53,084 bases of DNA from contig JAUVGW010000001.1 of the NCBI GenBank assembly GCA_030593565.1, positions 1 to 53,084 of the forward strand. Reading direction: 5' to 3'. A program made the translations under genes and the position numbers. Source of the stretch: Phycisphaerae bacterium (GTDB lineage: Bacteria; Planctomycetota; Phycisphaerae; UBA1845; UTPLA1). This document shows positions 4,433 through 30,060 of this stretch, piece by piece. Below the pieces are notes generated by a model, which ran no database searches, was not told where the DNA came from, and saw only the letters and a program-made list of their open reading frames with translations. Within the stretch, counting starts at the first letter, position 1. Every line of letters begins with the position of its first letter.

Positions 4433-5032
4433 ATGTCCGGCAAGAGGGGTGCATTGCGTGGTGTCGTGGAATCCGACGCTGAACCGGTCGTGGGAGGGAA
4501 GACCGTGACAAGGCCCGAGGAGCGGTTGGTGGCGGCGGTGACCACGCTGATTGAGAGAATGGCGGAAGCGACAACGGCACCGCAGGCGACCGGGCGCAGC
4601 GCCGCTCGATCGGAGAACACCGCAGAAGACGAGCATCGGCTCCGAGCGTTCGTGGACGACCTTCAAGATGCTGAAGCCGAGTGCGAGGCGTTGTGGCGGG
4701 AGAACGAGCGGCTCAAAACCGAGAACGCCAATCTCCTCGAGGCAAACGGGCATCTCGATCAGGCGTTTTTCCATGTCCGTCGCGAGCTTGACGATGCGCG
4801 CCGGCTGATCAATGCGATGGAATCAACGCGGGGCTGGAGGATCTTGAACGTCCCCCGTCGTATGCGCAACGCGGTCAGGCTGCGATGCCCGCAACCTGAC
4901 CAGAAGAGTGAACACATGGTGGATCGCGCCGTCGCGGATCCGCCTCGACGGGGATATGTACGAATCCACGATGGACGGCCTGGTCAACCTCTATCCGAAG
5001 CTCTCTGTGGGAGGATACCTGATCGTGGATGA
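4433..5032 (+). CDS. Hypothetical coiled-coil protein; its 3' part overlaps the TylF fragment, so it may be chimeric
   Basis: ORF with a heptad-like acidic/Leu segment (LRAFVDDLQDAEAECEALWRENERLKTENANLLEANGHL) followed by ESTRGWRILNVP. I believe that combination is seen in proteins of glycan loci, from memory only. No recognisable catalytic domain. Confidence 0.35.
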   Translation: MSGKRGALRGVVESDAEPVVGGKTVTRPEERLVAAVTTLIERMAEATTAPQATGRSAARSENTAEDEHRLRAFVDDLQDAEAECEALWRENERLKTENANLLEANGHLDQAFFHVRRELDDARRLINAMESTRGWRILNVPRRMRNAVRLRCPQPDQKSEHMVDRAVADPPRRGYVRIHDGRPGQPLSEALCGRIPDRG

Positions 5033-5184: not shown

Positions 5185-7536
5185 TTGGTCAGTCACTCCC
5201 GGATTATCTGGAGAACCATGTTCCCCATCCGTAACCAATGGGCGCGAATCAACCTGGCCGCTCAACATCACCCTCGGGTCCTCACGATCGTCGAAGCCAT
5301 CGCCGCGTTCATTGTGGTTTCCTTCGCGGCCGTCTATCTCGGTCAGTACGTCCACGCCATGAGCACAACATCCCTCTGGACGGACGAATTATTCACCATC
5401 GCCCGGTACTCCTCGCAAGGACCGCTTGTCACCATCACGAACGGCGGTGGAAACAATCATCACTTCTTCAACCTGGTCAACTCGCTGACGCCCTGGATGG
5501 ACCAGTACAACCCGCTCAGGGCGCGTCTTTGGTCCATCACCGCCGTCATCGCCATGCAACTCATTGTGCTCGTGTTCTTCGCGAGGCGCAGGCGTTTCAT
5601 CGAAGGCGCCCTGCTCTTCCAGTTGTTGGCCGTCAACAGTCCGCTCCTCGATCTCACGCTCCAGGCTCGCGGCTACGGATTCGCCTGCTTCTTTGCTGTT
5701 TCCATAGCACTGCTGCTTGTGAGGTACTTCGAAACCCGACACCGACGTGACGTGCTGCTGATCGCACTGCTGTCATTCCTCGGTGCCTGGACCTTCCCCC
5801 CCTTCGTCATCTTCGCCGGCCCCCTGCTGCTCCTCTTGTTCCTCTGGACGAAAGACAGATGGATCTTCCTCGTCGGGAGCCTCACCGCCTTGGCGATCAT
5901 CCTCGTTCATTTGCCGGTCATGGACGAGATCACACACAACGCCGTCTCATACTCATCCAAGAGGTACAACAACTTCCCAGGCGTCCAAATGGTCTTCGCG
6001 GCCATCGGGCTCTACCTGCTGTCCGCGCTCGACGCAAGCTCCATCGCCTGGGCCCAGTTCAGCGCCGTCATGGCCGCCGCCATTCTCCCCTGGGTCGCTT
6101 GGCGCCGGCGAGACCCGCAGGGCGCACCGGCCAGGATCATCTGCCTCTCGTTCTGCGCGATGTTCTTGATCTACTTGGCGATGCGAACGCCCCCGTTACG
6201 AATGGCTTCGTTCGGCGTCGTGCCGTTGGCCGTGATGGCGACACTTCTATTCCAACGATTCTACAGACACGACCGCTTCCGCCCGATCCGCCCCATACTC
6301 TGCATCGGAATCGCGGCGCCCCTCGTCCTCCTCAGCCAGACACGCATCGCGGACTTCCACTTCGTTCCGAGAGAAAACTGGAAAGGACCGGCCGACTTTA
6401 TCACAGCGAACTTCCCCATCGGCACCAGAGTCCCGGCCGACTTCAAGACCGGCTACCTGAGCGCCTATCTCAGTGGGGAATACCCCGTCGTTCCCTATCA
6501 CCGAAAGCAATTCGTCCGAGGTGAGTCCATCTCTGTCAATTCACGTGTCGGCAAGCGCCCTGTGGGCATCGCCGACGCCGACATCGCCCGTGTGTCGTTC
6601 CCTCAGCGCAGGTGGGCCGGCGAACAGACCTTGCGATTCGCCCCGCCTGTTCACTCATACATCCGGAACCTCACCGACGCCACAGGCCGCGACCTGTCCG
6701 GAACCCTGCTTGATCGGAATATGCACACGCGCTGGCGCGCGACACTACCACAAGAAGACGGAAACGGCGCTATCCTGTTGAAGGCCTTCCTGCAACCGGG
6801 CAAGACGTATCACTCGCTGCATCTCATATGCAAGAATGACCAGGCTTTTCCGGAAACCTTGCCGCCGACACATTCGCACATCACCAAGGTCGTGATCGAA
6901 AAGCGTGAAACCGAAGACGAGCGCATCTCGAATCTCATGCTTGATCGCGATTTGAAGACAGTCTGGAAGACGAAAGGGAGACAAAGCAGGCTGCACGAGA
7001 AGATCGTGCTCCGCGCAACGTTGGATCCCGACACAAGATATCACTCCCTCCACCTTGTGTGCCCGAAAGAGGCCTGGCCGCGGAATCTCTCAGCATACCA
7101 GGTTACCGGCGACCGACGGGTCCCTATCGACGACGCCGACATTCACACACTCGGTGAGCATCTGTGCATCGGTCTCAGTGACAAGACCGTTGATGCCGTC
7201 GAATTGCACATCGCAAAAGCGCGCGGCATCAAGCAGGGTATCGCGATTAGCGAAATATGGGCCTTCAAGAGCGGAACCGTTGCCGCCATGCCGGACCATT
7301 GGCACATCACCGCCCGATGCATGATCGGAAACCGCTCGGAGCCTGTCGCGCCGAGCGACATCACAATCCATGGTGAACACGTCGGCGTCTTCCTGGGCAA
7401 CCGGGCGATCGACGCCGTCGAGATCGCCGTCAAGCCCGCCGACCCTCACGTCGCCCCGGACATTTGGTCGATTTCAATCAGCGAAGTCTGGGCATGCCCA
7501 AACCGGGGGAAGGGTGATTTACAGATCCGGCGATAG
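5185..7536 (+). CDS. GT-C fold (ArnT/PMT, GT39/GT83-like) membrane glycosyltransferase with duplicated extracytoplasmic C-terminal modules
   Basis: There are more than 10 hydrophobic segments and an LWTDELFT acidic motif in the first loop. The C-terminal roughly 330 aa contain paired repeats: LLDRNMHTRWRA..YHSLHLICK / LMLDRDLKTVWKT..YHSLHLVCP, and ..AVELHIA..ISEIWAF / ..AVEIAV..ISEVWAC. The start could be the internal Met at 5218. Confidence 0.8.
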   Translation: MVSHSRIIWRTMFPIRNQWARINLAAQHHPRVLTIVEAIAAFIVVSFAAVYLGQYVHAMSTTSLWTDELFTIARYSSQGPLVTITNGGGNNHHFFNLVNSLTPWMDQYNPLRARLWSITAVIAMQLIVLVFFARRRRFIEGALLFQLLAVNSPLLDLTLQARGYGFACFFAVSIALLLVRYFETRHRRDVLLIALLSFLGAWTFPPFVIFAGPLLLLLFLWTKDRWIFLVGSLTALAIILVHLPVMDEITHNAVSYSSKRYNNFPGVQMVFAAIGLYLLSALDASSIAWAQFSAVMAAAILPWVAWRRRDPQGAPARIICLSFCAMFLIYLAMRTPPLRMASFGVVPLAVMATLLFQRFYRHDRFRPIRPILCIGIAAPLVLLSQTRIADFHFVPRENWKGPADFITANFPIGTRVPADFKTGYLSAYLSGEYPVVPYHRKQFVRGESISVNSRVGKRPVGIADADIARVSFPQRRWAGEQTLRFAPPVHSYIRNLTDATGRDLSGTLLDRNMHTRWRATLPQEDGNGAILLKAFLQPGKTYHSLHLICKNDQAFPETLPPTHSHITKVVIEKRETEDERISNLMLDRDLKTVWKTKGRQSRLHEKIVLRATLDPDTRYHSLHLVCPKEAWPRNLSAYQVTGDRRVPIDDADIHTLGEHLCIGLSDKTVDAVELHIAKARGIKQGIAISEIWAFKSGTVAAMPDHWHITARCMIGNRSEPVAPSDITIHGEHVGVFLGNRAIDAVEIAVKPADPHVAPDIWSISISEVWACPNRGKGDLQIRR

Positions 7537-7558
7537 TCACCCGCCGCAGTAGTTTGCC

Positions 7559-8857
7559 TCAACTCGCAGTTGCTTCATCCACATCTTCTTGCCTCGATCC
7601 CGCCCTCGCGACCTGCTCGACCTGTCGGATGACTTCGGCCGTGATGTACGATTCCGGTCGGCGCGGCTTCTCCGACAGCCGCATCGCTGAATCGACCTTC
7701 AGCCCGGGTTTCTTCATAAGACCCCGCAACGCAAGGAGGATCGCCTTCATCAAACTCGGATAGTGTATGAGAATGTTGTTGTATGATTGATTCGCCAGCG
7801 GACATGCGCACTGGCGATTCCTGATACCACGACGCACATCTTGTGCTTGTTGTGAATGCCATACCTTGTCAAAGTCGTAACCCACATCCCGCAGGTTTCC
7901 CATCGGCTTGTCATATCCCAGGACACAACACGGCCACAGGTCGCCGGTCGGCGTCAGATGCACGTTGGAGATTCCCGCATAACATGGGATCACTTGCCGC
8001 TTCTCCTTGACGATCCGCGCGGCAATATCGTAGTACACAATGCGCAACGCCTCCGTCAGCCGTGTCAGGCGACCTTTCGTGCCGATGTTCTCCCAAATCT
8101 TGCGCGAAAAGCTTCGTATCAGATCGGCATACTCCTCTCCGGAGGGTGTGATCGGATCACCTATATTGTAGAACTCGGTGCGCTGCTCCGCGATTTCATT
8201 ACGGTAGCTGCCGACACGCATCGCATGGCCAATGTCTTCGATGTCCTCCAGATGCGCCTTATTCATATTGGAGATGACTGTGCCCACCTCGACGTGCAGA
8301 TTCGGAAACTCTACCGCAAGACGCTTTAGGCGAATAATCGTGTCGACCAGACGGTTCCAATTACCCTTGACACCGCGCACCTCGTCGTGCATCACCCCCA
8401 CGCCGTCATAGGACGGTTTGATCGTGAATGGAACTTCCAGTCGTAAACGTCGCATCGTCTCCATGATACGGCGCATCTGCTGTTCGATCACTTTCGGTTG
8501 GATCGCATTCGTCGGAGTATGGAGAATGCGAGGGCGCAGGTGACGACACGCCAGTTCGACGATCTCGGGCAAATCCTTCCGCAAGAACGGCTCACCGCCC
8601 GAGATGTTGAAGAAGTAGATTCGACCAATACTCCTGAAGATTTTCTCAATCTCCTCCAACGACAGCTCGTTGTGCCTCTGTTCCGGCCACCACTTGTAGA
8701 TCTGCCAGATGTTGCAGGTCCGACAGCGTGATTGACAGAGATTCGTCACCGAGAACGTCAGGGTGAGGGGGCGTCCATGGCGCTTTACACCGCCGTAGGA
8801 CAGGCGGTAGTCAACCGTTCGAGGAAACAGGCATGTTATGAAGTCCTTCACGTTCAT
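7559..8857 (-). CDS. Radical SAM protein with a C-terminal SPASM/twitch-like Cys cluster
   Basis: It has a CQSRCRTCN (CX3CX2C) motif and a GGEPFL SAM-binding motif. A C-terminal Cys set follows (CYAG..WPCCVLGY..RQCACPL). It is the last gene of the minus-strand glycan operon. Confidence 0.9.
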   Translation of the reverse strand: MNVKDFITCLFPRTVDYRLSYGGVKRHGRPLTLTFSVTNLCQSRCRTCNIWQIYKWWPEQRHNELSLEEIEKIFRSIGRIYFFNISGGEPFLRKDLPEIVELACRHLRPRILHTPTNAIQPKVIEQQMRRIMETMRRLRLEVPFTIKPSYDGVGVMHDEVRGVKGNWNRLVDTIIRLKRLAVEFPNLHVEVGTVISNMNKAHLEDIEDIGHAMRVGSYRNEIAEQRTEFYNIGDPITPSGEEYADLIRSFSRKIWENIGTKGRLTRLTEALRIVYYDIAARIVKEKRQVIPCYAGISNVHLTPTGDLWPCCVLGYDKPMGNLRDVGYDFDKVWHSQQAQDVRRGIRNRQCACPLANQSYNNILIHYPSLMKAILLALRGLMKKPGLKVDSAMRLSEKPRRPESYITAEVIRQVEQVARAGSRQEDVDEATAS

Positions 8858-9033: not shown

Positions 9034-10470
9034 CTACTGACTTCGCTTCCTCACACGATCAAGAACCGCGCTCACCTGCTCCCTTGTAATAGCGCCCGTA
9101 AGCAACATCAACAGCCCGAAGACCACAACGCTCGCCAGTCCCATGACGGGCAAGAACGCAACTGTCCTTACCTGTAAGCAGACCAGACCGACACATACCA
9201 CCACGCAGGCCAACACAGCCTTTGCCAACGTGGCGGGATGCGCGAGGGCGCCCGTGCGCCGGGCAACGACAACGGCGGCAATGGCCGTGCCGACGGCCAC
9301 CGACACCAGGTTCGCCGTCGCCATGCCGATCATGCCGTACCTCGGTGTCAACCAGACACCCAATCCAAAGTGCACTGGTACGCAGAGCAATACAATGACC
9401 ATTGCGTGTTGCGGTTTTCCGGCAGCAGTGATGACCGATGCAAGCGCGTGCAGTACGGCCAGCAGACACATCGAACTGAACAGTAGGATCAGGGCTTGCG
9501 AAGCCGCGCGATAGGCCGACGGATATACGAAGTCCAGACAAAGCCCCGCGGTCGCACCCACGAATGCGGTGCCGAACAGCCCGACAACGACCAGCGATGT
9601 GATGTTCTTACGAACGATCTTCCCCACCTTCGATGCTTCAGATGCTTCGCTCGAGCCCAAGGCTTGCGAGATTGTCGGGAGCAACGTCACGGAATAGGAG
9701 TATAGAACGAAGTATGGCAACTTTCCGAAGTTCATCGCTCCCGTGTAGAAGCCGATGATCTCGTCATCCGGGTAATAGTGTTTCAAGATCATGATGTCGA
9801 GATTCAGAAGCAGCGTGATCCCGATGGAGAAGGCAACGATTGGCAGCGAGAACGCCACGAGTTTACGCGCTTCGCAACTGCCTTCGCGGCTCGGCCGTCG
9901 GACTCGGACACGGATCAAGACCAGGGCAACCAGTACCGCTAGGATCAATCCGAACAACACGCCGTCTATGCTGAGACCTAATAGCACCAGCGCAATAGCG
10001 AACACGAACCTGCCGGCGGCGTATATGCCGGTGTAAAGGGCTTGAAGGCCGAATTCCGAACGCCCGTTGAGAAAGGCCTGATAGATTTGGAACACGGCCA
10101 TGCAGGGAATCAGCAGGGACGATATCAGGATGCTTCTTGTCAGGGACGTGTCGTTCAGAAGACGCGTCCAGATCGGCGTCCCAGCCGCATAGAGCACGAG
10201 GATACCCAAGGAACAGAGGAACTGGATTTTCAGTGCCGTCGCGAAGATCGCGCCTTCGTTGCTCGGATCCATCGCGATGAAGCGAGAAGTTGATTGCGGC
10301 AGACCCGTCGACAGGAATACCCGTGCCATCGTCACCATGCCGAGGATCACGCCCAGATCACCATAGTCCCGCGGGTCGGCCAGGAAGTACGCCATCGAGA
10401 CGTGGATCAGATAACTGCTGATCAGGAAGCCGAACCTCGCGATGACCTGGTATAACGTTCCTGTCGTCAT
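9034..10470 (-). CDS. Polysaccharide flippase (Wzx-like, MOP/MATE superfamily)
   Basis: 478 aa with about 12-14 hydrophobic helices throughout. Its position in the glycan operon and its N-terminal region are typical of the Polysacc_synt family. Confidence 0.8.
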   Translation of the reverse strand: MTTGTLYQVIARFGFLISSYLIHVSMAYFLADPRDYGDLGVILGMVTMARVFLSTGLPQSTSRFIAMDPSNEGAIFATALKIQFLCSLGILVLYAAGTPIWTRLLNDTSLTRSILISSLLIPCMAVFQIYQAFLNGRSEFGLQALYTGIYAAGRFVFAIALVLLGLSIDGVLFGLILAVLVALVLIRVRVRRPSREGSCEARKLVAFSLPIVAFSIGITLLLNLDIMILKHYYPDDEIIGFYTGAMNFGKLPYFVLYSYSVTLLPTISQALGSSEASEASKVGKIVRKNITSLVVVGLFGTAFVGATAGLCLDFVYPSAYRAASQALILLFSSMCLLAVLHALASVITAAGKPQHAMVIVLLCVPVHFGLGVWLTPRYGMIGMATANLVSVAVGTAIAAVVVARRTGALAHPATLAKAVLACVVVCVGLVCLQVRTVAFLPVMGLASVVVFGLLMLLTGAITREQVSAVLDRVRKRSQ

Positions 10471-10476
10471 GGCATA

Positions 10477-11172
10477 TTACGACCGAGCATCAGGCAGGAC
10501 CAATTCACCGTCTTTGTAATAGGGCCGTCGGCGCAGAGCCAACGCGTCCTCCGCCCTATACCCGAAATGTTCCCTGACTACCTTTGCGGGCGAGCCTCCG
10601 ATGAGTGCATCCTCCTCATGGATAGACTTCACAACCACTGATCCGAGTCCCACCACGCACCGTGCTCCGATCCGTGTGCCCATTTGAAAAAGACAATTCG
10701 ATCCGACATACACGTTATCGCCGATGACAATCGGTTTGAACTCCTGCAAGTGTAATGTATGCGTCATGAACACCGACCTGATGCCGCCTATCACCACGTT
10801 ATCTCCGATGATCACATCAGCACATATATCCATGTAGTGCATCAGTTCGATGATCGCGCATCCGCCGAGTCTCAGACAAGCAGCCGGATAGTCTTTCTTG
10901 TTTGCCGTGCCGCGAAACAGGTTCATGGAGAATCTGGGACCGCCGATTCGAGAATACGGCGCCATTTCGAGCCGATGCACGCTGAGGAAGATGTTGCCGA
11001 TGCCCCGGATCGCGGCATGTTCCTCCATCACGACCGTCCTGATATCGAGCAAGCTGAACATGCCGATCTTGACATGTCGACCGATCTTGAAGCCCAGCAG
11101 ACTCCTATACAGCACAACGCGCACACAGTTGATGGGTGTCATGGCGATGATGATCAGGATAAATAGTCTCAT
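10477..11172 (-). CDS. Hexapeptide-repeat (left-handed beta-helix) acetyltransferase, WcaF-like
   Basis: Repeated [LIV]G-x4 hexapeptides are present (IGDNVVIGG, IGDNVYVGSNCLF, IGARCVVGLGSVVV). The start overlaps the upstream stop (11169-11172). Confidence 0.75.
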   Translation of the reverse strand: MRLFILIIIAMTPINCVRVVLYRSLLGFKIGRHVKIGMFSLLDIRTVVMEEHAAIRGIGNIFLSVHRLEMAPYSRIGGPRFSMNLFRGTANKKDYPAACLRLGGCAIIELMHYMDICADVIIGDNVVIGGIRSVFMTHTLHLQEFKPIVIGDNVYVGSNCLFQMGTRIGARCVVGLGSVVVKSIHEEDALIGGSPAKVVREHFGYRAEDALALRRRPYYKDGELVLPDARS

Positions 11173-21546: not shown

Positions 21547-23259
21547 TCACCGTTTGGCCATGTTCGATTCAGCGGAGCTTTTTTGGATTTCCTCAGCTTC
21601 CTTCACGTCGGCGACGTTGTCACTGTGGCAGGCGCGTTTTCCGTCATGTCGGGCCGGCAGCCCGCGCTGCTCGGATATCGGTTTGGGCGACTGCGCGCTA
21701 CCGGGATCGGGGGAGGCCACCGGCGAGACGCCGGTGCCGCAGGTTTGTTTGTCGGCTTCGTCCTTGCCGCTGGCGAACTGCTCGATTTCCTTGCTGATCC
21801 GCAACGTGCACCAGTCGTGGCCGCACATCGCGCAGTAGTCGGCCTCGACGTCCAGTTCCTCGGTCCGTAGCGAGCGCGCCGTCTCACCGTCGAAGGCGAG
21901 TTCGAAATGTCTCGGCCAGTCCAAGGCTGCCCGGGCACGACCCATGTCGTGATCCCACTCGATTGCGCCGGGGACGCCACGCGCGATATCGCCGGCGTGG
22001 GCGGCGATCTTGTACGCGATGCAGCCCTCCTTGACGTCATGCGACTTCGGCAGGCCGACATGCTCCTTCGGCGTGACGTAGCACAGCATGGCCGCACCGG
22101 CACGGGCCGCCTCGGTCGCGCCGATGCAACTCGTGATATGGTCGTAGCCCGGGAAGACATCCGTAACGACCGGCCCGAGCACGTAAAACGGGGCGTCATC
22201 GCAGATGCGCTGCTCGATCTGCATGTTCCACGCCACCTCGTGCAACGGCACGTGGCCCGGCCCCTCGACCATGACCTGCACGCCGGCTTCGCGGGCGCGG
22301 TGGGTCAACTCGCCGAGGACCTCCAATTCCGCGATCTGTGCCGCGTCGCCCGCGTCCTTCAGGCAGCCCGGCCGCACGCCGTCGCCCAGCGAATAGGCCA
22401 CGTCGTACTCGCGCATGATCGCGGAGATGTCGTCGAACACCTCGTACGTCGGGTTCTGCTTGCCGTGGTGCAGCATCCATTTGGCCAGCAGCGACCCGCC
22501 CCGCGAGACCAGCCCGGACAGCCGATGATTGATCAGGTGCAGGTTCTCCCGAAGGATGCCCGCATGGATCGTGAAGTAGTCTACGCCCTGTCGGGCCTGG
22601 TTTTCGACCTCCTTCAGGATGTCGTCGTATGTCAGGTCCTCGACCGAGCGGTTGATGATCATCGAGTAGATCGGCACGGTACCGATGGGGATCGTGCTGT
22701 TGTCGATGATGGCTTGTCGACACTCGTCGAGATTCCCGCCGGTGGACAAGTCCATCAGCGTGTCGGCTCCGTACTTCTGAGCCCAGCGGAGTTTCTCGAT
22801 TTCCGCCTGCGTGCCGGACGCGACCGGGCTGGCGCCGATGTTGGCGTTGATCTTGGTGGTGATCATCCGGCCGATGCCGATCGGGTCGAGACGCCGAGGC
22901 GCGACCTGGCCCTCGAGGACGCCCGGCCGGTCGATCTCGGCCCACCGCTGGGCGGCGGTCTGGTTCACCCACAGCCGCGCGCTGTCGCCGTGCCCCGGGT
23001 GACCGGCGGCCAGGTCGAGGTGCTCGACATCGACGATCTGCCGCGCACTGCTACCACCGGCTACGTCATCGCCGGTGGCCTCGCGCATCCGCGGCGCCTG
23101 CCCCGCCGAGCCAGCAAGGTGCCGCACATTGGCCGGTATGATCAACCGCCCCCGCGCGACTTCCTCGCGGATGAAAGACGGCGAAACATTCTCGCGCTGG
23201 GCGACACGCGTCATCTCAAGTGTCGTAATGCCCTTTCGGGCGGATTGTAGTTGTGTCAT
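21547..23259 (-). CDS. thiC: Phosphomethylpyrimidine synthase ThiC
   Basis: There is full-length similarity to ThiC (ARKGITTLEM.., ..FYVLGP..TD..GYDHI.., C-terminal CAMCGHDWC cluster motif). It also has a roughly 80-aa low-complexity tail. Confidence 0.95.
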   Translation of the reverse strand: MTQLQSARKGITTLEMTRVAQRENVSPSFIREEVARGRLIIPANVRHLAGSAGQAPRMREATGDDVAGGSSARQIVDVEHLDLAAGHPGHGDSARLWVNQTAAQRWAEIDRPGVLEGQVAPRRLDPIGIGRMITTKINANIGASPVASGTQAEIEKLRWAQKYGADTLMDLSTGGNLDECRQAIIDNSTIPIGTVPIYSMIINRSVEDLTYDDILKEVENQARQGVDYFTIHAGILRENLHLINHRLSGLVSRGGSLLAKWMLHHGKQNPTYEVFDDISAIMREYDVAYSLGDGVRPGCLKDAGDAAQIAELEVLGELTHRAREAGVQVMVEGPGHVPLHEVAWNMQIEQRICDDAPFYVLGPVVTDVFPGYDHITSCIGATEAARAGAAMLCYVTPKEHVGLPKSHDVKEGCIAYKIAAHAGDIARGVPGAIEWDHDMGRARAALDWPRHFELAFDGETARSLRTEELDVEADYCAMCGHDWCTLRISKEIEQFASGKDEADKQTCGTGVSPVASPDPGSAQSPKPISEQRGLPARHDGKRACHSDNVADVKEAEEIQKSSAESNMAKR

Positions 23260-23357
23260 GGGATTACCTATTCGTTACCATGGGATTGCCTTGGCCCCTC
23301 CGGAGCCAGTGAAGACATCCATACAACGCGCCAGACGGTGGCAAAAGGCCACATCGA

Positions 23358-24428
23358 TTACGCCGGCCCCCTTCTCGATTCCGCCAAGTCCAGTTCGGGC
23401 GCTTTGGTGCCGAGCCGGCGCAGCATGTTGACCGCCTGGGCTCGGTGGTGGGTGCCGTGGCCGAGTAGTTGCAGCATCGACTCGCCCAGGCGGAAGTTCA
23501 GTTTCACTTCATTCCGCACGTATGCCGAGACGACGCGGTGAAGATCGTCGTTCGTCAGCCCGTCGAAAAACGAATCTCGCCGCTGGGCAGATTGCGTGAA
23601 CGCCGATAGCACATCGGCGATTGGCGCATCCGCCGCCAAGTCGTCAAACCCGAGCTGCGGTCCTTCCGTCCAATTCCTGTACCACCAGTGTTCGGCGTCG
23701 CGAATGTGGATCAACGTCTTGCGAACTGTACCGAGCCCCATCTCGAACGACCGATCGAGCTGTTCATCCGAAAGCACCGCGGCGACGGCGGCCACACGAC
23801 CGAAGGCCCAATCGCCATAGCGGAAGAAGTCGCGGATCGTTGCGAGGTCCAGCGGCGCCGGTGCCACGACCGTGTCGCTCACGGCGAAATCCAGTTCGCC
23901 CAATCTGGGTAGAAACTCCGGCTCGTGTTCGACGGTCGGGCGTTCCAGTCGCATGAACAAGTAGTCCAACCCCGGCGGCTTGACGCCGTGGTGGCGCAGC
24001 ATGTTGAGCGCCTGCGCCCGATGGTGAATGCCGTGGTTGACTAGATGGATCAACACGTCGCCAAGGCGATTCGTGGCACTCACACCGCCGTCCGGCGTCA
24101 TTGTGACCGTTCTGTCGAGATCGGCGGTCGTGAGAGCCGCCAGCCACGCGTCGCGGGCATCCGCAACATTGCCCGTAGCCGTCGCGAGGTCGTCCATCGT
24201 CGCCAGGTCACGAGCGCGCGCGAGGTCGTCATACCCCAGCGCTGCCGTCCACTTGTGCCAGATTCGCTCGGCACCGTAGATGTGTCGCAGGTTCGCGCGT
24301 AGCGATCCCCAGCCCATCTCGACCGGGGCGTCGAGATGCTCATCCGTCAGGCCAGCGGCGGTCCGCATGACTTTTTGATTGGCCCAGCGGTTGTAAACGT
24401 TCAGTTCGCGAATCGTATCGAGGGACAT
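23358..24428 (-). CDS. Tandem DinB-fold protein (two DinB/DinB_2-like four-helix-bundle halves)
   Basis: Half 1: YNRWANQKV..LRHIYGAERIW..HLVNHGIHHRAQALNMLRHHGVKPPGLDY. Half 2: YGDWAFGRV..LIHIRDAEHWW..LLGHGTHHRAQAVNMLRRLGTKAPELD. Confidence 0.85.
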   Translation of the reverse strand: MSLDTIRELNVYNRWANQKVMRTAAGLTDEHLDAPVEMGWGSLRANLRHIYGAERIWHKWTAALGYDDLARARDLATMDDLATATGNVADARDAWLAALTTADLDRTVTMTPDGGVSATNRLGDVLIHLVNHGIHHRAQALNMLRHHGVKPPGLDYLFMRLERPTVEHEPEFLPRLGELDFAVSDTVVAPAPLDLATIRDFFRYGDWAFGRVAAVAAVLSDEQLDRSFEMGLGTVRKTLIHIRDAEHWWYRNWTEGPQLGFDDLAADAPIADVLSAFTQSAQRRDSFFDGLTNDDLHRVVSAYVRNEVKLNFRLGESMLQLLGHGTHHRAQAVNMLRRLGTKAPELDLAESRRGPA

Positions 24429-24434
24429 GGCTTG

Positions 24435-24545
24435 CCGCTTCCCTACGCACCTCGTCGCCGCGCGGAGCCAGCGCCTCGGTGGTCAGGTTCGAAGGGTTCC
24501 GGCTCACCGGCCGGATCTCAGCCCTCATCGGGCACCCCTAGCGAA
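24435..24545 (-). promoter_or_regulatory. TPP (THI-box) riboswitch
   Basis: The minus strand reads CGCTAGGGGTGCCCGATGAGGGCTGAGATCCGGCCGGTGAGCCGGAACCCTTCGAACCTGACCACCGAGGCGCTGGCTCCGCGCGGCGACGAGGTGCGTAGGGAAGCGG. All conserved cores (GGGGTGC, GCTGAGA, ACCC..GAACCTGA, GCGTAGGGAA) are in canonical order. It ends 6 nt before the ATG at 24428. The P4/P5 arm is longer than in E. coli thiM. Confidence 0.8.
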
Positions 24546-24612: not shown

Positions 24613-25128
24613 CTAGCCGACGTTGCAGAGCGTGAATGAACCGTCCGAAGCACTTGCGGCTTGGGTGTGCGGTGGGTTCGGGAGCCCGTGGCCCAGACTC
24701 GCACCGGCATCGTCGATCACGATGCGTGTCCGCACGTCTTCGGGAAAGTACACGCCTCCGGCCAGGACTTCATCGATGGCGACGGAGATGAGCTGCCAGA
24801 GTTGGTGTTTTGGAACGAGGGCCCGGATGCCTGTTTGGAGGGCTCGCGCGATGCATCGATCGTCGAAGGTGGTGGCGATAAGGATCAAACGCGTCGTCGG
24901 CCAACGCGATCTGATCCTGGTCGCAAGCTGGAAGCAGTTGCTTTCTGCGGAGTCGATGTCCATGATGATGATGCTTGCGGCCCGCCAGTCCAGGTTTTCG
25001 GTCGGGTCTGCCGGTAGGTCGACAATGCCGAGAAGGAACAGACGCGGATCACGTTCCAACCGGAGGGCAACGCAGTCCATCAGAAACCCATGGTTGCCGA
25101 CGAGGAGTGTTGTAGCCCTTTTCTGCAA
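24613..25128 (-). CDS. NarL/FixJ-like receiver-domain protein lacking an output domain and the N-terminal acidic pair
   Basis: LLVGNHGFL stands in place of the usual ..DDHP... IIIMDID (phospho-acceptor Asp) and ALVPK (conserved Lys) are retained. GGVYFPEDV is the linker typical of NarL-type regulators, but no LuxR HTH follows. Confidence 0.7.
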   Translation of the reverse strand: MQKRATTLLVGNHGFLMDCVALRLERDPRLFLLGIVDLPADPTENLDWRAASIIIMDIDSAESNCFQLATRIRSRWPTTRLILIATTFDDRCIARALQTGIRALVPKHQLWQLISVAIDEVLAGGVYFPEDVRTRIVIDDAGASLGHGLPNPPHTQAASASDGSFTLCNVG

Positions 25129-25290: not shown

Positions 25291-25507
25291 CACCACCGGC
25301 TTTGGCGCCGGTGCCACAGCGCCCGTTCACCTGCCGTTCCCTTAGTTGTTCGCCGTTGGTGGGGCCAATCTTTCTCATCTCCGGAAAGAAATGAGAAAGA
25401 TTTGGACGGGTTCCGACGAATGGTGAAGTAGATGGCGTCTATTCGGAGGCCAGCCTCGGCAAGTAGTCGTAACAGCGGTGTCGCAATCTTGCATTTGGGA
25501 TGGTCTC

Positions 25508-26104
25508 ATGACGACGGTCACGAGCCTGACGTTGTTGGAAGCACTCGGCGGTGGCCGGGATGAACGCGCCTGGCGGGAGTTCTTCCGGTTATACGCGCCG
25601 ATGCTGATGGGCTTCACTCGCCAATTGGGGCTTCGCGAAGAAGACGCGAATGATGCGGTGCAGGAAACGCTCGTGGCGGTACATGCAGCGTTTCGGGAAG
25701 CTAACAACCCGTTCGACCGCTCGAAAGGCAGGTTCAAGGCGTGGCTGCGCGGGATCGCCCAACACAAAGTGCGCGACGTGCAGCGGCGACGAATGCGCGC
25801 GGAAACGGTCGAAATAATGGGGGACCGTGCGGCGGGCTTGGTCGACGCGGTCCAGCAGAATCTGGACGAAGCGTTTGATCGCGAATGGCAGCGGACAATG
25901 TTGGCTCGGTGCCTGGATGAAGTGGCCGGGCAGGTCGATCCCGTCGTGTATCAGGCCTTTGAGCTGTACGCGGTACACGGTCGGGACCCACGGGAAGTCG
26001 CGAAGCTGCTGGGTGTCAGCCGCAATGCGATCTACATCAGCAAGACGCGTGTGATGAAGCGAATCAAGGCGGTCCTCGCGGATATCAGAGCGATTGAGGA
26101 TTGA
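25508..26104 (+). CDS. ECF (group 4) RNA polymerase sigma factor
   Basis: A region 2-like segment (DANDAVQETLVAV) and a region 4 HTH (VSRNAIYISKTRVMKRIK) are present. I chose the ATG at 25508; the ORF opens at 25478 (GTG). Confidence 0.85.
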   Translation: MTTVTSLTLLEALGGGRDERAWREFFRLYAPMLMGFTRQLGLREEDANDAVQETLVAVHAAFREANNPFDRSKGRFKAWLRGIAQHKVRDVQRRRMRAETVEIMGDRAAGLVDAVQQNLDEAFDREWQRTMLARCLDEVAGQVDPVVYQAFELYAVHGRDPREVAKLLGVSRNAIYISKTRVMKRIKAVLADIRAIED

Positions 26105-26382
26105 CGATGATGTCACGATGCCTGGAATCGGACGTGTTGGAGCGGTTTGCTCGTGGTGAGTTATCGGGCGAGTCCGACGCCAAGGCTGAAGCGCACGTCG
26201 CGACATGTCGCCGTTGCGCCAGGAGACTGGCGAGTTTGCCTATTGACGAGGAGTTGCTCGAGCAAATCCGCGATGCGGATCGTTCGCGGCGGGAAATCGC
26301 TCCCGCCCTGTCGACCTTGAACGCCATCACGGAGCGGTTGACCACGACGCTGTTTCACGCTCCGCCGCCCGGGTCCGTGTAG
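26101..26382 (+). CDS. Putative zf-HC2 anti-sigma factor, short, with no TM segment
   Basis: An ATGA overlap links it to the sigma gene. H-x3-C-x2-C motif (HVATCRRCARRL). Confidence 0.6.
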   Translation: MTMMSRCLESDVLERFARGELSGESDAKAEAHVATCRRCARRLASLPIDEELLEQIRDADRSRREIAPALSTLNAITERLTTTLFHAPPPGSV

Positions 26383-29976: not shown

Positions 29977-30060
29977 TGCGGCCGAGAGGACTCGAACCTC
30001 CACGGGGTTGCCCCCACTGGCACCTGAAGCCAGCGCGTCTGCCAATTCCGCCACGGCCGC
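29977..30060 (-). tRNA. tRNA-Leu (anticodon CAG), CCA not encoded
   Basis: The reverse complement reads GCGGCCGTGGCGGAATTGGCAGACGCGCTGGCTTCAGGTGCCAGTGGGGGCAACCCCGTGGAGGTTCGAGTCCTCTCGGCCGCA. It has a 7-bp acceptor stem, a CTGGC/GCCAG anticodon stem with loop TTCAGGT, a long variable arm and a GGTTCGAGTCC T-loop. Confidence 0.9.

Follow-up and report, generated by a model that had tools for sequence, protein, structure and literature searches.

A TPP riboswitch precedes a tandem DinB-fold gene and thiC in a Phycisphaerae-type planctomycete: a candidate accessory gene of thiamine pyrimidine synthesis

We analyzed a stretch of DNA from a Phycisphaerae bacterium (positions 1 to 53,084 of contig JAUVGW010000001.1; this whole stretch is called the window below), in which an element of the thiamine pyrophosphate (TPP) riboswitch type, or THI-box, precedes a gene encoding two DinB domains, followed by thiC. 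The locus is read on the minus strand. It starts with a sigma-70-like promoter (TTGCCA-17-TATCAT, 24581-24553) with 10/12 matches, whereas 0.5 sites were expected in shuffled sequences. The TPP aptamer follows at 24549-24423, according to a local scan with the Rfam model RF00059 and to a covariance model of the clade. Next come the tandem DinB gene (24428-23358, with the ATG at 24428), whose product of 356 amino acids (aa) matched PF05163 twice, an intercistronic spacer of 98 nt (23260-23357), and thiC (23259-21547), encoding a phosphomethylpyrimidine (hydroxymethylpyrimidine phosphate [HMP-P]) synthase of 570 aa. The promoter-like site ends 4 nt upstream of the aptamer match, which would put the transcription start close to the first aptamer base. 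A TAnnnT -10-like hexamer was present at the same distance upstream of GCUAGGGG in six related loci (L001, L003, L006, L009, L010, and L030; related loci are designated by L numbers). Gene calls in relatives were based on tblastn, Pfam, and precomputed calls, since greedy calling of open reading frames (ORFs) in high-GC DNA gives spurious antisense ORFs.

The thiC assignment was clear from the profile scores (579.9 bits for PF01964 [ThiC_Rad_SAM]; 602 bits for the NF009895 equivalog, with a cutoff of 410) and from the C-terminal CX2CX4C cluster motif, CAMCGHDWC. In the ThiC protein of the window, the N-terminal ANVRHLAG motif is followed by an insertion of some 70 aa (residues ~45-122), which splits the Pfam match in two and is found in relatives as well. 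Its tail of about 75 aa (residues ~495-570) contains cysteines and gave a very weak match to the MymT metallothionein.

The initial annotation had described a single THI-box in the window, on the minus strand from 24545 to 24435, with the cores GGGGTGC, GCTGAGA, ACCCTTCGAACCTGA, and GCGTAGGGAA. All four cores were located there. A clade covariance model (R1), built from 12 copies of the element, detected a single THI-box in the window (94.8 bits; E about 1e-22) and 37 elements overall, with exactly one at each locus. The P1 helix extends from 24544 to 24435, with UCGCU (24544-24540) paired with AGCGG (24439-24435), and it is separated from the ATG of the DinB gene by 6 nt (CAAGCC), as originally described. 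A scan of the whole window at the Rfam gathering thresholds returned tRNA only and no RF00059. When RF00059 was run as a local scan, the element scored 52.7 bits (gathering score, 54.3; E=4.6e-9). The threshold check proposed in the annotation therefore formally failed by 1.6 bits, but the E value, the intact cores, and the presence of similarly sub-threshold elements before thiC or thi4 in relatives supported the assignment. The alignment was full length (model positions 1-105), and the loss of score was mainly due to an insertion of 28 nt in the P5 loop. All RF00059 cores were found (GGGGUGC, CUGAGA, ACCCUUCGAACCUGA, and GCGUAGGGAA), including the ligand contacts, namely, UGAGA as the pyrimidine sensor and ACCUGA together with GCGUAGGGAA as the pyrophosphate sensor, within a P1-P5 architecture. 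Across the 37 homologous copies, 92.8% of the helix cells were paired, compared with 38-55% when partners were slid, and P5 showed GC-to-CG swaps. The element lies in the same operon as thiC, and homologous elements are found 5' of thiC or Thi4.

Could the element be a chance match or a decayed, nonfunctional aptamer? The score below the gathering threshold and the existence of decayed copies in relatives (a remnant in L040 and two core substitutions in L003) would fit this idea. However, it is highly improbable given the E value, the full-length match with every ligand-contact core intact, the promoter immediately upstream, and the 36 homologous copies before thiC, thi4, or DinB with conserved and compensated pairing. 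On these sequence grounds, the element is most probably a TPP riboswitch that responds to TPP.

The low Rfam score was not peculiar to the window. At the gathering score, a scan of 10 related loci gave no TPP match at all, and under a permissive scan the elements of relatives scored 33.6-48.9 bits (cutoff, 54.3). Because these elements adjoin thiC and thi4, we consider them genuine TPP riboswitches. Judged from their sequence context, the shortfall is a matter of an operational cutoff mis-set for this clade rather than a biological property, and annotation based on Rfam would overlook these elements. Most TPP riboswitches of the clade carry AUGAGA in place of the near-universal CUGAGA, a change that turns the closing G-C pair of P3 into G.A, plus long loop insertions (L001 6827-6968, L006 6858-6997, L009 6832-6969, L010 6862-7000, L030 1951-2127, and L080-L098). 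Two copies appeared to be decaying: L040 (~2480-2680) retained only GCUAGUGUG and CUGCGUAGGGAAGC, with the ligand cores replaced, and L003 (6829-6969) had UGAAA for UGAGA and GCGGAGGGAU for GCGUAGGGAA and no thiC next to it. In other leaders, GC-rich palindromic repeat units (e.g., GUAGCGGCCCGCGCCCUCGCGCGGCCG) occur between the riboswitch and the first gene (L100 180-490, L102 5720-5990, and the leaders of L091 and L096). Two long perfect hairpins in L082 (5356-5447 and 1087-1169) matched the microRNA family mir-3688 on both strands below the cutoff; they are repeat elements rather than microRNAs.

We then considered how the riboswitch could act on the downstream gene. It had been suggested that the purine tract AGGGAAG in the 3' side of the aptamer serves as a Shine-Dalgarno sequence for the DinB gene. 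This tract (24438-24444, minus strand) lies within the P4 3' strand, the junction, and the P1 3' strand, and it ends 9 nt before the DinB start codon. It was conserved in all copies of the element, and an ATG was found 2-10 nt after GGGAA in about 27 of 35 copies. This ATG is the start of the main gene in some loci (DinB in the window, L004, L010, L030, L050, and L104; thiC in L036), and elsewhere it begins a short leader ORF with a stop codon that runs into the main start (ATGA or TGATG). Such an overlap was found with the DinB start in L001, L009, L011, and L021 and with the thiC start in L087, L089, and L094, while the leader ORF of L056 is coupled to an uncharacterized ORF of 141 aa. Thus, DinB holds exactly the regulatory position taken by thiC in other loci. 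The use of Shine-Dalgarno sequences is plausible in this clade, since the thiC genes of relatives have GGAG-type sites. Translational control through AGGGAAG is therefore supported by the conserved arrangement of tract and start codon, as a prediction from sequence. The leader ORFs comprise 12-58 codons and start 2-9 nt after AGGGAAG (L001 ~6962-7001, L009 ~6963-7001, L021 ~4508-4555, L011 ~6900-7001, and the thiC leaders of L087, L089, and L094), a layout that unites riboswitch, leader peptide, and translational coupling.

The DinB gene and thiC had been proposed to form one operon, with a 98-nt spacer free of THI-box cores and strong terminators. The spacer is exactly 98 nt long (23260-23357), and no second THI-box, promoter-like site, or terminator-like site was detected in it, nor an unusually stable fold (z = -0.23). 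Spacers between DinB and thiC in relatives were 3 nt (L001), 18 nt (L006), 35 nt (L040), and 160 nt (L005). Where a THI-box stands before DinB, no further riboswitch is found before thiC, each locus having a single element, and in sister contigs without the DinB gene the same riboswitch stands directly before thiC. These observations support the operon. The alternative is that the riboswitch regulates DinB alone and that a separate promoter in the spacer, unregulated or under other regulation, drives thiC; at 98 nt, the spacer would be long enough for one. A ribosome-binding-like site of thiC itself (TAGGTAA), as well as two loci (L005 and L103) where DinB is followed by thiC without any THI-box, would agree with separate units. 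Yet the spacer contains no promoter-like site, the homologous spacers of 3-35 nt are too short for a promoter, and this thiC would become the sole unregulated one in a clade whose thiC otherwise carries a riboswitch. We consider separate units quite unlikely.

To what extent the arrangement is conserved was determined with a scan of species-representative genomes (79 loci) and a riboswitch-first scan of metagenomes, for which the 5' half of the aptamer alone served as the query. In the genome scan, thiC was found downstream of DinB on the same strand within about 8 kb in 18 of 79 genomes, while about 0.1 would be expected by chance according to our estimate, which assumes genomes of about 5 Mb and a single-copy thiC. 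A THI-box directly preceded the double-DinB gene in 11 (L001, L002b, L003, L004, L006, L009, L010, L011, L021, L030, and L050). In the metagenome scan, the THI-box was followed directly by thiC at 7 loci, by double-DinB and then thiC at 4 (L083, L085, L088, and L090), by another gene and then thiC at 4, and by Thi4 at 3; one contig was too short to tell. THI-boxes directly before thiC were recorded at 8 loci (L036, L087, L089, L092-94, L097, and L098), and those directly before the Thi4 thiazole synthase at 3 loci (L080-82). Altogether, the THI-box stands directly before double-DinB at 19 loci, the window included, and double-DinB is followed by thiC at about 27 loci.

The linkage persisted where the surroundings did not. 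The four closest homologues of the window protein (51-56% identity) all had the order DinB, an optional NTP_transf_2/HEPN pair, and ThiC, and three of them had a THI-box upstream (L100, L102, and L104), although the outer flanks of the four loci were mutually unrelated. After all-against-all clustering of flanking ORFs, thiC was the only widely shared neighbor. In the DinB protein tree, the linked genes were distributed over at least four deep subclades, with none in the Pirellulales branch. Two loci had a THI-box and DinB with other genes behind them: in L004, a Rid-family gene and an unknown gene follow, and the contig ends 1.4 kb further on, and in L003, with its aptamer bearing two core substitutions, queA follows. 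The riboswitch position conserved over several genomes, at 19 loci in at least four subclades, qualifies the tandem DinB gene as a putative member of the TPP (THI) regulon. The initial annotation had raised this candidacy from the window alone, and the survey of relatives bears it out.

We next examined the tandem DinB protein. Pfam matched it with PF05163 in two stretches (132.7 bits; cutoff, 23) and with PF12867 (72.1 bits). The N domain covers about aa 1-165 and the C domain about aa 190-356, the two halves being 43% identical, so that the protein has the layout of a fused pseudo-dimer. Each half has a predicted metal site of three histidines (H49/H132/H136 and H241/H324/H328), invariant in 36 homologues, and matching arginines (R92/R137/R145 in the N half and R284/R329/R337 in the C half). 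The paired conserved arginines hint that the ligand may be anionic, for example, a thiol peptide or a phosphate ester. The AlphaFold2 model was of high quality (predicted local distance difference test [pLDDT], 94.3; predicted template modeling score [pTM], 0.91), and Foldseek matched each half with YfiT (1rxq), YizA (2qe9), and 3di5, in addition to 6iz2. With a modeled four-helix-bundle fold and a three-His triad, the protein is a member of the DinB/YfiT-like superfamily. Sequence and fold searches of the PDB found no tandem DinB structure, only uncharacterized single-domain DinB proteins and thiol transferases at 15-20% identity. Matches that are either uncharacterized or this distant do not allow functional transfer. 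The equivalogs of bacillithiol and mycothiol S-transferases (NF009807 and NF047843) scored far below their cutoffs (32.6 versus 160 and 25.3 versus 170, respectively), and the protein was therefore not classified as a thiol transferase.

The protein search yielded 525 homologues, all from Phycisphaerae or Planctomycetota and all annotated simply as "DinB family protein". The tandem family is of modest size, since 192 clusters at 50% identity reached E<=1e-30. A search for other contigs encoding the window protein found only a 2-kb duplicate contig. Apparent fusions with YhbY, HisG, and an alpha/beta-hydrolase look like read-through calls or single-domain cases. L002 encodes two double-DinB paralogues (7001-8035 and ~10055-11143), one of which alone stands behind a THI-box, and in two other loci the double-DinB gene is followed by one or two extra single-domain DinB genes (L031 1499-3789 and L021 4552-6119). 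The DinB family thus appears to be expanding by duplication at this locus.

Taken together, the best explanation of the locus is a TPP-riboswitch-controlled bicistronic operon of a Phycisphaerae-type planctomycete, in which the tandem DinB protein is a recurrent, lineage-specific accessory of the HMP-P (pyrimidine) branch; we put the probability of this explanation at about 60%. When TPP is abundant, it would lock P1 and P4 of the aptamer and bury the AGGGAAG ribosome-binding tract, so that translation of DinB, the first cistron, would be blocked. Expression of thiC, which has no leader of its own, would then drop with the first cistron through Rho-type polarity or decay, by analogy with the E. 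coli thiM TPP riboswitch, for which Rho-dependent termination or decay on the untranslated cistron has been demonstrated (Bastet et al. 2017, PMC5499598). In relatives with spacers of 3-35 nt, the close coupling of DinB and thiC may add to thiC repression. As for the tandem DinB protein, our best guess is a metal-dependent enzyme with a small molecule of the pyrimidine branch as its substrate; it could either salvage or repair damaged pyrimidine or clear or handle a by-product of ThiC.

A number of findings weigh against this explanation. The riboswitch of the window is 1.6 bits short of the Rfam gathering score. Since thiC has its own Shine-Dalgarno-like site, its repression would need an effect at the transcript level. 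Neither thiC nor a THI-box occurs near about 75% of the DinB family members (all Pirellulales and many others). In six loci (L031, L033, L034, L036, L044, and L056), DinB precedes the THI-box and is not under its control, and in five loci (L005, L007, L008, L040, and L103) DinB is followed by thiC with no detectable THI-box. An exhaustive profile search revealed no informative domain fusion in the tandem-DinB family, and the literature searched offered no connection of DinB-fold proteins with thiC, thiamine, or TPP riboswitches and no biochemical precedent for such an enzyme in thiamine metabolism. Finally, the slot between THI-box and thiC also holds cupin, LolA-like, DMP19-like, redoxin, and single DinB genes, as well as toxin-antitoxin-like HEPN/nucleotidyltransferase pairs, so that presence in the slot is no proof of a thiamine function.

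The last point leads to a different explanation, according to which the THI-box-thiC interval is a permissive insertion hot spot and DinB a general stress or detoxification gene that is coregulated by accident, without a thiamine role. Some of the cargo is clearly unrelated to thiamine (HEPN/NTP_transf_2 pairs, the cupin, LolA-like, and DMP19-like proteins, and a rhomboid-like protein), most family members are not linked to thiC, and the repeat-rich leaders of L100 and L102 suggest frequent insertions. On the other hand, double-DinB is by far the commonest occupant of the slot (19 loci), and it has been kept over 40-56% protein divergence and at least four subclades while the other flanks turn over. 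It also stays within 4-7 kb of thiC where it is outside the riboswitch-controlled segment, in the six loci mentioned above; it follows the riboswitch in L003 and L004 with no thiC immediately next; and it occupies the coupled-leader position held by thiC elsewhere. An accidental passenger is therefore possible but doubtful. Given the plasticity of the slot, the three-quarters of the family without linkage, and the six loci with DinB upstream, a thiamine-specific function of the tandem DinB protein is likely, though not certain.

Other occupants of the slot were found at L033 (11874-12686), L044 (12599-13195), L095 and L033 (cupin), L091 and L096 (secreted LolA-like protein), and L031 (5180-6475; redoxin/DUF3738). 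The DMP19-like protein, the small cupin, the LolA-like protein, and the redoxin have no known thiamine role. Pairs of NTP_transf_2 and HEPN genes occur inside the DinB-thiC operon or just after thiC (L100 3580-4321, L102 8561-9323, L103 7142-7907, L002, L007, L011, and L095), and their repeated insertion points to a hot spot of insertion at this locus. A divergent Rid-family (Ribonuc_L-PSP) gene was present in L030 (3181-3597), L004 (7769-8158), and L050 (9036-9425) and between DinB and thiC in L007, L008, and L009. It did not reach the equivalog cutoffs of RidA and RutC and, on visual inspection, apparently has no RidA catalytic arginine context. The Rid-family protein may be a functional partner of the DinB protein.

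Within the preferred explanation, a more specific possibility is that DinB helps ThiC itself, by supplying or maintaining a metal or a thiol for the [4Fe-4S] cluster or the second mononuclear metal site or by shielding ThiC from inactivation. In Salmonella, glutathione and Fe-S defects impair thiamine synthesis at the ThiC/ThiH steps, which counts for such a helper. The linkage is specific to thiC, rather than to thi4, thiD, or thiE, and the protein has two conserved, predicted three-His metal sites. The characterized DinB-fold proteins among its fold matches are thiol transferases (YfiT and MST) or Fe-binding domains (EgtB and OvsA), and a redoxin lies in the same slot in L031. Against a helper function, the thiol transferase equivalog scores were far below the cutoffs, many ThiC-containing relatives have no DinB in the operon, and L003 and L004 have DinB after the THI-box with no adjacent thiC. 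Moreover, E. coli ThiC retains its function in vivo when cells are stressed with H2O2 or superoxide (Rohaun and Imlay 2022, PMC9576991), and a protection of ThiC from reactive oxygen was downgraded for this reason. We regard a ThiC helper as unlikely, and a purely structural chaperone of ThiC is less likely among the functions considered. The remaining candidates are pyrimidine salvage or repair, handling of a ThiC by-product, and metal or thiol support of ThiC. That the tandem DinB protein, often with the divergent Rid partner, is an unrecognized pyrimidine-branch enzyme of the salvage, repair, or by-product-handling type seems to us an even bet.

Around the operon, a response-regulator-like ORF (24613-25128, minus strand), which scored below the Pfam cutoff, ends about 30 nt upstream of the riboswitch promoter. 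In the divergent orientation, an extracytoplasmic function (ECF) sigma factor gene (25478-26104, plus strand) is followed by a short ORF (26101-26382, plus strand) that may encode an anti-sigma factor. A tRNA-Leu(CAG) gene lies near the operon (29977-30060, minus strand).

The riboswitch class, thiC, and the DinB fold are each already known. New with respect to the literature searched are a conserved tandem DinB gene under TPP-riboswitch control next to thiC and a clade whose riboswitches are systematically sub-threshold. Following up genes associated with TPP riboswitches has repeatedly uncovered missing steps in thiamine synthesis, salvage, and transport, and several such genes, including OarX, are unsolved. 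ThiC is among the most complex radical S-adenosylmethionine enzymes, and its requirements in vivo are incompletely understood. If the tandem DinB protein is a pyrimidine-branch enzyme, this would be the first role of the DinB fold in vitamin metabolism. A thiamine role would be a new type of function for a large, mostly uncharacterized superfamily, and it would add a step to the pyrimidine branch in Planctomycetota, a group abundant in waters and sediments with an exchange of thiamine precursors. Such a role would have stayed hidden because the riboswitches of the clade, with AUGAGA, a ribosome site embedded in the aptamer, and ATGA-coupled leaders, fall below the Rfam threshold. With a whole clade of real TPP riboswitches under the cutoff, riboswitch-based regulon reconstruction skips these organisms.

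Among known systems, the riboswitches of E. coli thiCEFSGH and thiM (RF00059) have the same aptamer architecture and ligand-contact cores and likewise stand 5' of the HMP-P synthase gene. Their expression platform acts on ribosome access, as proposed for the window, and a secondary transcript-level effect like that of thiM (PMC5499598) is likely here. In contrast to E. coli, an uncharacterized gene of 356 aa lies between the aptamer and thiC, and the aptamer itself contains the ribosome-binding tract, a separate sequestor hairpin being absent. The elements of the clade, moreover, are sub-cutoff, mostly with AUGAGA and long loop insertions, and many of them drive an ATGA-coupled leader ORF. YfiT/BstA, a bacillithiol transferase, and the mycothiol transferase Rv0443 share the DinB four-helix bundle and the three-His site with the tandem protein and were among the top fold matches (1rxq and 8f5v). 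However, their identity to it is 16-19%, and they are single-domain homodimers, unlike this fused tandem. We know of no thiol cofactor for this clade. TenA and YlmB, pyrimidine-salvage hydrolases of THI regulons, are soluble pyrimidine-branch enzymes under TPP riboswitches, and YlmB is a metal-dependent hydrolase, but the tandem DinB protein has no sequence or fold relationship with them. The closest precedent in kind is OarX, a short-chain dehydrogenase linked to TPP riboswitches, with an unassigned role (Oliveira-Filho, Rodionov and Hanson 2024, PMC11223231). In both cases, a protein with a generic fold and no assigned reaction is tied to thiamine by riboswitch association and clustering across genomes. 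The tandem DinB protein differs from OarX in being a predicted four-helix-bundle metalloprotein rather than a short-chain dehydrogenase, in belonging to Planctomycetota, and in having specifically thiC, not salvage or transport genes, as its partner.

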